From: a phage
Sequence record: PZ583739.1
Reading direction: 5' to 3' (one strand)
Length of the DNA: 64,000 nt
Of this stretch, positions 20,033-21,492 are shown piece after piece. Position 1 is the first letter of the stretch; each line of letters begins with the position of its first letter. The notes beneath the pieces were generated by a model. It did no database searches, was not told the origin of the DNA, and saw only the letters and a program-made list of their open reading frames with translations. The translations under genes were made by a program, and so were the position numbers.

Positions 20033-20257
20033 TTATTCCACACCAGCAGCTTTCAAAAGTTTTTTAAGATTGGCAGTACCTTGAGCGGAAAATGTGACTT
20101 TGCCACCTTTTTCACCGATGCTACCGGTCAATTTAGCAAGTTTATCACTTGGAATTTTTTTAAAATCAGCCAGTGTACCATCAAAGGTTTTTGTAACAAC
20201 TGGCAGTTCATCTTCGTGTCTTTTAGCTTCGGTAATAAATTCTTGATAAGTTTTCAT
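20033..20257 (-). CDS. internal protein (CTS-bearing), array member 1
   Basis: Starts MKTYQEFITEAK; own early promoter (TGTATAAT) upstream. Confidence 0.6.
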   Translation of the reverse strand: MKTYQEFITEAKRHEDELPVVTKTFDGTLADFKKIPSDKLAKLTGSIGEKGGKVTFSAQGTANLKKLLKAAGVE

Positions 20258-20316
20258 TTTGATTCCTATTGTTTATTTGATGAGATAATTATACAATATC
20301 CCATTCAAAAGTACAC

Positions 20317-20571
20317 TTATTTTTTAGGGATACGGTAGTAACGCATCTCAACATCTTTCTGCTTGTACCACTTTTTGATAAGGTCTTCAGAACCTTTAAT
20401 AGTAACGATGTCATAGCGACCATCATGCGATACTTCAGCACTTAACTGCATGAAGTTGTCTAGTGAACGACGCAATTCCTCATTAGAAAAACTACCACGC
20501 GGGGAACCAACATAAGCAAACTCAACTTTTGCATCTGCGGCTTCGTTAATAAATTCTTGATAAGTTTTCAT
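20317..20571 (-). CDS. internal protein (CTS-bearing), array member 2
   Basis: Starts MKTYQEFINEA. Confidence 0.6.
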   Translation of the reverse strand: MKTYQEFINEAADAKVEFAYVGSPRGSFSNEELRRSLDNFMQLSAEVSHDGRYDIVTIKGSEDLIKKWYKQKDVEMRYYRIPKK

Positions 20572-20627
20572 GTTGTCTCCAGTAGTTGATGAGATAATTA
20601 TACTGCAGTTATCCCATCGCGTATACT

Positions 20628-20870
20628 TTATTTTAAGTCTTCCAGACGTTTTTTCATCTTGGTGCCGTTCTTAGCAATCTCGCCTGCATCAGAACAAAGA
20701 GCAAGGAGAGCTTTAACTTTACCCTGGTCGCCTTTAAAAGATGATGCATCTACTGAATCAGCAAGTTCTTTGATACGTGCAAACAGGCGCTCTGCTTCAG
20801 CAAGGGCTTGACCAAGTTTAACTTCCATACCATGGGAAGATTCTGTTATAAATGTTTGATAAGTTTTCAT
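20628..20870 (-). CDS. internal protein (CTS-bearing), array member 3
   Basis: Starts MKTYQTFITES. Confidence 0.6.
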   Translation of the reverse strand: MKTYQTFITESSHGMEVKLGQALAEAERLFARIKELADSVDASSFKGDQGKVKALLALCSDAGEIAKNGTKMKKRLEDLK

Positions 20871-20878
20871 TTGAAATC

Positions 20879-21151
20879 CTATTTTAGATAAATTGCATAT
20901 TTTTTATAACCAGCCGTCTCATGGCGAAGACCCTTGTCATTGGCAAAACGCTCAATGTTATTAATTTGGTTCTGGTCAAGTTCTGAAATGTCAAACGCGA
21001 AAAAGTTGCGTTTGTTGCCAATTGTTATATGGTCAGTTAAGTCAATGCTATACAGGTGATTGATATTGTCAATCATAGCTTTGACCGCTTTACTAATTTT
21101 TACTTCTTCATTCAGTTGTGACTCGTTGAAAAATTCATTGAAAGTTTTCAT
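20879..21151 (-). CDS. internal protein (CTS-bearing), array member 4
   Basis: Starts MKTFNEFFNES. Confidence 0.55.
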   Translation of the reverse strand: MKTFNEFFNESQLNEEVKISKAVKAMIDNINHLYSIDLTDHITIGNKRNFFAFDISELDQNQINNIERFANDKGLRHETAGYKKYAIYLK

Positions 21152-21159
21152 AAGAAACC

Positions 21160-21492
21160 TTATTTATAAAGTTTTGCCAGTTCTTTACGTCCGCGAGCAG
21201 ACATAATAAATTGTTCATCGCCAATTTTAAAATAAGCCATACCACCGTCAACAGCGATACCAATTTCTTTAGTACCTTCTTTGCCTTTCCACTTGCCACC
21301 AGATTTCAGGACAGCTTCAACTGCAGCTTTGGAATATTTGGACGTTTGAAAACGTTCATTACCAATCTGAAAGAAAACACCATCTGCATTTTTGGATAAA
21401 CCAAATTTCAGAGAGCCTTCACTATCATCAATTGATTTGGTCTCATTGATGGCGGATTCGGCTAAAAACTCGTTGTAAGTCTTTATGTTCAT
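21160..21492 (-). CDS. internal protein (CTS-bearing), array member 5
   Basis: Starts MNIKTYNEFLAES. Confidence 0.55.
   Translation of the reverse strand: MNIKTYNEFLAESAINETKSIDDSEGSLKFGLSKNADGVFFQIGNERFQTSKYSKAAVEAVLKSGGKWKGKEGTKEIGIAVDGGMAYFKIGDEQFIMSARGRKELAKLYK

Follow-up and report, generated by a model that had tools for sequence, protein, structure and literature searches.

The window analysed here is a 64,000-nucleotide stretch of phage DNA (sequence record PZ583739.1), and its positions 20033–21492 hold an array of five consecutive small genes, ipA to ipE, each of which opens with a variant of the capsid-targeting sequence (CTS) of the T4 internal proteins (IPs). We take this array to be the hypervariable ipI locus of a Gaprivervirus-type phage, the IP cassettes of which would be loaded into the head, injected and used against host defences, and we put the probability of this reading at about 85%. 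The gene structure, the leaders, the identity of the locus, the family memberships, the mosaic pattern and the protease and core genes are seen directly. The arrangement is an already known one, largely annotated in close relatives, and represents no new system or principle.

The array genes are minus-strand open reading frames (ORFs) of 74, 84, 80, 90 and 110 codons, with names that run from ipA at the 3′ end to ipE. Their coordinates and CTS-like N-termini were recovered as the sequence-only reading of this DNA had given them, and they lie between two genes with T4 counterparts (a slash in a leader marks a predicted cleavage point):

21553–22008, minus strand: 57B, which is Acb1 (anti-CBASS 2H phosphodiesterase) and adjoins the array on its upstream side; matches PDB entry 7T26 with E = 9e-62, supported by T4 synteny
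21160–21492, minus strand: ipE, 110 residues, the first array gene; leader MNIKTYNEFLAE/S, second site INE/T; phrog_3966
20879–21151, minus strand: ipD, 90 residues, Ip9-type internal head protein; leader MKTFNEFFNE/S, second site LNE/E; phrog_7673, E = 1.7e-56
20628–20870, minus strand: ipC, 80 residues, Ip5-type internal head protein; leader MKTYQTFITE/S; phrog_3499, E = 2.4e-41
20317–20571, minus strand: ipB, 84 residues, diverged Ip6-type internal virion protein; leader MKTYQEFINE/A; phrog_8111
20033–20257, minus strand: ipA, 74 residues, internal virion protein, the last array gene; leader MKTYQEFITE/A; phrog_8765
19786–19971, minus strand: trna.4 homolog, a small membrane protein and the downstream boundary of the ipI locus, from its ORF, its relatives and T4 synteny

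The order trna.4, ipA–ipE, 57B, 57A, gene 1, gene 3 is that of the T4 ipI locus. The match of 57B to Acb1 bears out the earlier statement that the array stands beside this gene, and it follows that ipI of T4 likewise adjoins Acb1. Relatives of several array genes already carry IP names: VR26, VR7 and SP18 list ipD as Ip9 or internal head protein, VR26 has ipC as ‘ip5, similar to RB51 Ip5’, and ipB, which RZ and vB_YenM_P8 call ‘internal virion protein’, is 47% identical to the gene annotated as Ip6 in VR26 (compared via the VR20 copy). The 90%-identity cluster of ipA takes in Dhakavirus phages.

The same locus was compared in 28 IMG/VR loci anchored on 57B together with T4, RZ and the window (L numbers below), and CTS genes between 57B and trna.4 were counted in the 19 loci in which trna.4 was located. 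There were none in three loci, one in eight, two in one, three in two, four in two and five in three, with five-gene arrays in the window, VR20 and RZ and four-gene arrays in VR25 and VR26. The array had been described as expanded; this holds against T4, which has one gene at its ipI locus, but not within the genus, where four to five genes are the norm, and the array is thus large beside T4 and ordinary for its genus. RZ has the identical five-gene order, and its record already labels four of the five as internal head or virion proteins; MN01, DK-13 and vB_YenM_P8 align along the entire 1.9 kb array query at ∼93% identity. VR20 carries three other CTS cassettes in place of ipC, ipB and ipA. 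The DNA of ipA in the window is 88–90% identical to Dhakavirus-like loci whose 57B is 70–76% identical, and it is 76% identical to its RZ counterpart, although the RZ 57B is 99% identical. As ipA is closer to the Dhakavirus-like loci than their 57B is, these comparisons indicate that ipA is an exchanged cassette. The leader blocks that recur in the DNA (29–56 nt, 73–97% identical) are plausible crossover sites; shuffling at IP loci was proposed in 1994, according to the passages of PMC2839356 and PMC12373910 that cite it.

The window as a whole belongs to a T4-like phage of Gaprivervirus type, the nearest records being TH44, UPEC07, RZ, MN01, VR20, VR25, VR26 and SP18. A search of an August 2025 phage collection with window positions 1–25000 found no identical record; the best match, Escherichia virus TH44, covered 96% of the query in 11 pieces at 95.6% identity, a pattern that fits a mosaic Gaprivervirus genome.

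The three further CTS-bearing genes that had been proposed outside the array are also real ORFs with CTS-type leaders:

8375–8644, minus strand: ipG, 89 residues; leader MKTYQEFLAE/S, second site LNE/S; phrog_8765, E = 2.6e-37
7555–7854, minus strand: ipF, 99 residues, downstream of denV; leader MLTYKEFITE/A; phrog_2667 ‘internal head protein’, E = 1.5e-41
17500–17883, minus strand: orfH, 127 residues, an ORF and candidate internal protein; variant leader MLTYAEFLNRNTITE/SVLTE/A

ipG starts at the position of T4 ipIII, 3 nt past the stop codon of the lysozyme gene e, and the CTS start of ipF is the ATG at 7854 and not the upstream TTG at 7893. The two genes flank denV beside e, which is the T4 ipII/ipIII neighbourhood in a slightly different order. 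By synteny with T4, seven of the eight CTS genes fall within the trna.4–57B or denV–e loci, and orfH lies outside both. A six-frame scan of the window with the pattern [KL]T[YF]..F[ILFVM].[EDR] returned exactly these eight sites, all at ORF N-termini and on one strand, in agreement with the earlier count of at least eight candidates; composition-matched shuffles gave a mean of 0.13 sites and a maximum of two. A looser leader scan of the window produced no credible ninth member. Small ORFs for which Pfam and NCBIfam give nothing above threshold, as is the case for all eight proteins, might be suspected of being annotation artefacts with a chance N-terminal similarity and not genes. This is all that speaks for such an explanation; against it stand eight motif sites where 0.13 would be expected, PHROG matches down to E = 1e-56 and the conservation of both genes and leaders across many phages and genera, which already refutes it, and we give it practically no weight.

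The leaders have the residues on which packaging and processing of T4 IPs depend. According to a review of Black's work (PMC9026906), the first ten residues of IPIII are enough for packaging, targeting rests mainly on residues 4 and 7 and processing on residues 8 and 10, and IP propeptides are 10–19 residues long. All eight proteins in the window have Thr3, Tyr4 or Phe4, and Phe7, and seven of them have [I/L/F]xE at positions 8–10 followed by Ala or Ser. The exception is orfH, with Arg at position 10 and with ITE/S at 13–15 and LTE/A at 18–20. A predicted gp21 processing site can accordingly be recognized in each of the eight, in orfH through its IPI-like later sites. The leader of ipE is shifted in register by +2 owing to an MN extension: the canonical ATG is now ATA and translation must begin two codons upstream (MNIKTY...). 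The canonical MKTYxEF start is retained in ten of ten clusters of ipE homologs. Conserved leader residues are written in varied synonymous codons (ACT, ACG or ACA for Thr3, ATT, ATA or ATC for Ile8 and GAA or GAG for Glu10), which argues for selection on the peptide and not on the DNA alone.

Among the surveyed loci, VR20 (L004:6139–6438) and VR25 (L006:6139–6438) have a 99-residue cassette whose leader, MQT[L/F]HEFLVEN, has diverged strongly but which is still assigned to phrog_2667 ‘internal head protein’. Judged by its family assignment, this cassette shows that a CTS can drift far, and strict motif searches would undercount IP genes.

The machinery that CTS-bearing internal proteins call for is encoded in the window, as gp21, gp22, gp67 and a gene in the position of gene 68:

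53509–54147, plus strand: gene 21, prohead protease expected to cleave off the leaders; Pfam Peptidase_S77, E = 8e-102
54180–54998, plus strand: gene 22, scaffolding core protein, on which the CTS would dock; Pfam T4_CASP, E = 5e-91
52821–53509, plus strand: genes 67 and 68, minor prohead core proteins; Pfam GP67 at 52821–53081, E = 8e-20, with 53081–53509 assigned to gene 68 by position only

gp22 itself has the N-terminus MLKEQLIAE/A. The portal protein gp20, gp23 and gp24 are encoded in the window as well.

Behind the leaders, the bodies in the array are unrelated to one another, as the sequence-only reading had stated. BLASTP among the bodies gave no significant pairwise similarity, and once the leaders were removed each body matched its own PHROG family alone: phrog_8765 for ipA, 8111 for ipB, 3499 for ipC, 7673 for ipD, 3966 for ipE, 2667 for ipF and 8765 for ipG, with none for orfH. 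ipA and ipG thus share a family, yet their direct comparison aligns the leaders only. A relationship between the bodies based on PHROG cross-hits was considered and rejected, as the cross-hits are gone without the leaders except for the ipA/ipG pair with its leader-only alignment. For six of the eight proteins, the PHROG family bears the label internal head or virion protein; the family of ipE, phrog_3966, is labelled ‘unknown function’. The homology search of the bodies that had been suggested as a check therefore places seven of the eight in families, but none in those of Ip1, Ip2 or Ip3, and orfH in none at all. The body of ipF also gave a borderline phmmer match (E = 3e-4, residues 42–91) to PDB entry 6XI1, a ‘Flagellin hook IN motif’ protein, in which no stretch passes alone; the likeness possibly reflects a shared small β-rich repeat.

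The mature bodies would have 64–111 residues, and seven of the eight have a pI of 8.8–10.1. ipE contains an internal sequence duplication, and its alignment-based AF2 model has a (β4-α)×2 fold at moderate confidence (pLDDT 75.5, pTM 0.62); the predicted fold is Whirly/PUR-like, of a kind typical of single-stranded nucleic-acid binders. For orfH, a single-sequence AF2 model was too poor to be used (pLDDT 36). Basic bodies and a fold of this kind in ipE would also suit proteins that are packaged but have a mainly structural or physical role in DNA charge neutralization, core or head assembly or DNA ejection, and the T4 IPs do bind DNA at low salt, with loss of IPIII slowing head assembly and lowering burst size (PMC9026906). 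T4 without all three IPs nevertheless grows on laboratory hosts (PMC9026906), all three characterized T4 IPs are specific restriction inhibitors (PMC12373910), and a structural role leaves unexplained why five unrelated families share one locus, why cassettes turn over fast and why they are exchanged between genera. We consider it unlikely that such a role is the main one.

The upstream regions show how the cassettes are built. ipE, ipB and ipA each follow a block of T4 early type (AGT[G/A]TAC, 17 nt, TAT[A/T]AT) with an inverted repeat that brackets the −10 element, and ipF has a block of its own:

21493–21556, minus strand: early-type promoter block of ipE; GTGTAC, 17 nt, TATTAT, inverted repeat at −10, GGAG Shine–Dalgarno sequence, DNA fold z = −2.1
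20572–20627, minus strand: early-type promoter block of ipB; AGTATAC ... GTATAAT, stem-loop, repeat family D7
20258–20316, minus strand: early-type promoter block of ipA; GTGTAC ... TGTATAAT, stem-loop
7855–7920, minus strand: early-promoter block upstream of ipF
21161–21168, minus strand: exact T4 late motif TATAAATA, over the ipE stop codon, with the ipD start codon 9 nt downstream

Common to the four blocks are an A-rich stretch, G-T-[G/T/A]-T-A-C, a spacing of ∼17 nt, a TATAAT-like −10 element and a Shine–Dalgarno sequence; they align with the upstream regions of T4 ipI, ipII and ipIII and share the inverted repeat with them. Each stem taken by itself is weak (z = −0.7 to −2.1), but their placement is consistent. 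ipD and ipC start 8 nt past the preceding stop codon and ipG, as noted, 3 nt past that of e, so that there is no room for promoters of their own. The sequence-only reading had given every array gene its own promoter-like sequence, which is correct for ipE, ipB and ipA but not for ipD and ipC. ipC has neither an early nor a late motif. A second TATAAATA near a CTS gene lies at 17915–17922, upstream of orfH; five such motifs occur on the minus strand of the window, about the chance number estimated from base composition, and late expression of ipD and orfH from them was for this reason not relied upon.

In the window, a 60-nt promoter block separates 57B from the array. In ten loci of other T4-like genera (L011, L014, L015, L018–L020, L023, L024, L028 and L031), the last base of the 57B match is the start of the first CTS gene, at locus position 5453. 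A CTS gene that abuts or overlaps the 57B stop codon in other genera hints that an injected protein and the anti-CBASS nuclease are translationally coupled there.

orfH is the least typical of the eight genes. On the minus strand it comes after genes for tRNA-Met and tRNA-Arg, a 79-codon ORF and a homolog of T4 rnaD, and before the e.x genes. It is found in 16 phage records as copies that are at least 99% identical and are called ‘hypothetical protein’ or left unannotated. A word-indexed homology search had made it seem a complete orphan; this was overturned by an exhaustive HMMER search with the body, which found two distant relatives (43–47% identity). Both open with CTS-type leaders (MYTFKEFLVES...LITE/A and MKSFKEFMLSE), and one is on a contig that bears T4-family accessory genes. 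In many T4-like genera, members of phrog_2280 (‘unknown function’; 150–205 residues) with a canonical MKTY(N/A)EFL(N/T)E leader lie within about 1 kb of the equivalent position, for example L008:8947–9564, L014:9153–9770, L009:8033–8497 and L007:9465–10028, and the family is present in JS98. The leader of orfH (MLTYAEFLNRNTITESVLTE) is that of this third locus in other genera with five more residues (MKTYNEFLN-----ESVLTEAG versus MLTYAEFLNRNTITESVLTEAG). phrog_2280 occurs in 139 phage records, as ‘hypothetical protein’ or unannotated in every record listed. From leader and position, it looks like an unrecognized internal-protein family at a third locus, and orfH, with this family at the equivalent site, a matching leader and CTS-led relatives, looks like a genuine IP. 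PMC2839356 states that T-even genomes have no IP genes beyond the two loci, so a third site for CTS genes would be a small departure from the published picture.

The rnaD homolog (the T4 ‘species 2’ small stable RNA) is at 18005–18124 on the minus strand, just downstream of the tRNA-Arg and tRNA-Met genes; it has no Rfam match, and the window contains no counterpart of its T4 neighbour rnaC. Between it and TATAAATA, at 17925–17990 on the minus strand, are two tandem units, each a GC-rich stem-loop with a similar tail: GCGGGCGGTGCGCCCGGTAGTATGAGAAAT and GCGGATGGTGCATCCGGTACTATGGAATAT. Rfam returned the two tRNAs and nothing else for 17300–22100. A stem-loop past the orfH stop codon is terminator-like by eye and was not flagged by the terminator scan.

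The early block with its inverted repeat around −10 also precedes denV (block at 8320–8375, minus strand) and trna.4 (block at 19972–20032, minus strand), neither of which has a CTS, and is therefore a general feature of early-gene cassettes and not specific to IPs. This raises the alternative that the 5′ block common to these genes (promoter, ribosome-binding site and first 30 nt) serves chiefly as a cassette for recombination and expression, and that some of the ORFs, in particular orfH and ipE, encode early accessory proteins that stay unpackaged in the cytoplasm. The DNA identity of the 29–56-nt blocks would suit this, as would the loss of the canonical start in ipE, the Arg at processing position 10 in orfH and the known mobilization of ORFans by PeSL-type cassettes in T4-like phages (PMC2839356). 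The synonymous variation at the leader residues is, however, a sign of selection on the peptide, every ipE homolog retains the canonical leader, the relatives of the orfH body are still CTS-led at 43–47% identity, which would be difficult to account for if the leader had no function, and T4 IPI is packaged despite a similarly long and non-canonical leader (PMC9026906). We thus regard the alternative of a mere cassette as very unlikely.

Returning to the reading of the genes as IPs, the path of each protein can be sketched from T4. We infer that the proteins are packaged, cleaved, injected and active against host defences. Each would be made with an N-terminal CTS of about ten residues (consensus MKTYQEF[I/L]xE), the aromatic residue at position 4 and Phe7 of which would dock it on the gp22 scaffolding core during prohead assembly. 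gp21 would then cut past (I/L/F)xE at residues 8–10, or a little further on at a second xxE site, as in T4 IPI. Mature N-termini are accordingly predicted at Ala11 for ipA (AKRHEDE...), ipB (AADAKVE...) and ipF, at Ser11 for ipC (SSHGMEV...), at Ser11 or Glu16 for ipD, at Ser13 or Thr18 for ipE, at Ser11 or Ser16 for ipG and at Ser16 or Ala21 for orfH. The mature body, small and mostly basic, would be kept in the head amid the packaged DNA at a probable copy number of tens to hundreds, and would be ejected into the cell along with the DNA, so that it could act ahead of any phage gene expression. By analogy with T4 Ip1, Ip2 and Ip3, each of which inhibits a different GmrSD type IV restriction enzyme (2025; PMC12373910), each body most likely neutralizes one first-line host defence, with type IV restriction enzymes of the GmrSD family, whose substrate is modified phage DNA, as the leading candidates for targets. 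The array would vary between phages because cassettes are swapped in and out by recombination between the conserved blocks of promoter, Shine–Dalgarno sequence and leader. The earlier description of the genes as a diversified set of candidate injected counter-defence proteins is supported by the two classical IP loci, by the six proteins in IP-labelled PHROG families, by the ip5, ip6 and ip9 annotations in relatives and by gp21 and the core genes; the anti-defence role of these bodies and the GmrSD target are drawn from the T4 analogy.

Several observations weigh against this account. None of the eight proteins is homologous to Ip1, Ip2 or Ip3 (phrog_4363, 7857 and 5341), and PDB sequence searches with all eight gave no meaningful match, IPI* included. 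ipD, with a pI of 6.8, is not basic. The two residues that precede the CTS in ipE and the five-residue insertion and Arg10 of orfH might affect targeting and cleavage. Literature searches brought up neither virion proteomics nor N-terminal sequencing or injection data on the eight proteins or close relatives, and nothing usable on Gaprivervirus DNA modification, which decides whether type IV enzymes are a relevant threat. Nor did the literature yield anything usable on the named variants Ip5–Ip9.

The closest known systems are the T4 IPs themselves, for which a general statement of function is given in PMC3012670 and a shuffling model in PMC2839356; IPIII is active in the cytoplasm without its CTS when expressed by the host (PMC9391042). 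The likeness extends to the CTS (the leader of IPII and IPIII, MKTYQEFIAE/A, is one residue from that of ipA), to the two loci as judged by synteny, to the early-promoter/stem-loop block, to the small and mostly basic proteins and to the gp21/gp22 machinery. T4 IPI has the leader MKTFKEFTSTTTPVSTITE/A and is cut past residue 19 (ITE-19), an arrangement similar to that of orfH. In contrast to T4, the eight bodies in the window are in other PHROG families, so their targets need not match; the ipI locus has five genes instead of one; ipF is downstream of denV and not between denV and e; and orfH is outside both classical loci.

The polymorphic IP loci of the T-even phages (Repoila et al., 1994, EMBO J 13:4181; Ip4–Ip13) are known to us through the papers that cite them (PMC12373910, PMC3012670 and PMC2839356). 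As described there, leader-bearing ORFs vary in number, order and identity between early-promoter flanks, with shuffling proposed; these descriptions reveal no difference in kind from the window, and ipC, ipB and ipD correspond to Ip5, Ip6 (diverged) and Ip9. The number of IP variants is given as ‘more than 30’ by Comeau 2007, as cited in PMC2839356. The PeSL cassettes of RB49/phi1-type phages are also short, conserved intergenic elements that pair an early promoter with a stem-loop, flank variable accessory ORFs and serve as recombination sites; the IP-associated elements are analogues of these and not homologues, with T4-type early promoters and weaker AT-rich stems, as in the window (PMC2839356). 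The Dar (defence against restriction) proteins of phage P1 and other anti-restriction proteins carried in capsids are likewise packaged in the head, injected with the DNA and protective against restriction before gene expression (PMC12810830). They differ in sequence, packaging signal and phage lineage, which are unrelated, and the Dar proteins in their target, type I restriction.

What the window adds is modest: ipE and orfH, which are not annotated as IPs in the records examined yet look genuine, a third CTS site and a predicted fold for ipE. It is possible, although we lean somewhat against it, that the IP system is wider than two loci of restriction inhibitors, with a third, tRNA-proximal site across the Tevenvirinae (orfH here; phrog_2280 in Dhakavirus, Mosigvirus and Karamvirus) and with ipE as an injected Whirly/PUR-like binder of single-stranded nucleic acid. 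If so, ipE would not be aimed at a GmrSD nuclease but, for example, at a sensor or effector of the host that works with RNA or single-stranded DNA. An N-terminal rule of the form M-x-T-[YF]-x-x-F-[ILFM]-x-E would find these genes more reliably than present annotation pipelines do.

Internal proteins are the first phage proteins in the cytoplasm and set host range against restriction of modified DNA. Targets have been identified for three of the more than 30 variants, all of them from T4 (PMC12373910, PMC2839356). With eight leader-tagged proteins in seven body families, none of them related to Ip1, Ip2 or Ip3, the window is a compact test set.

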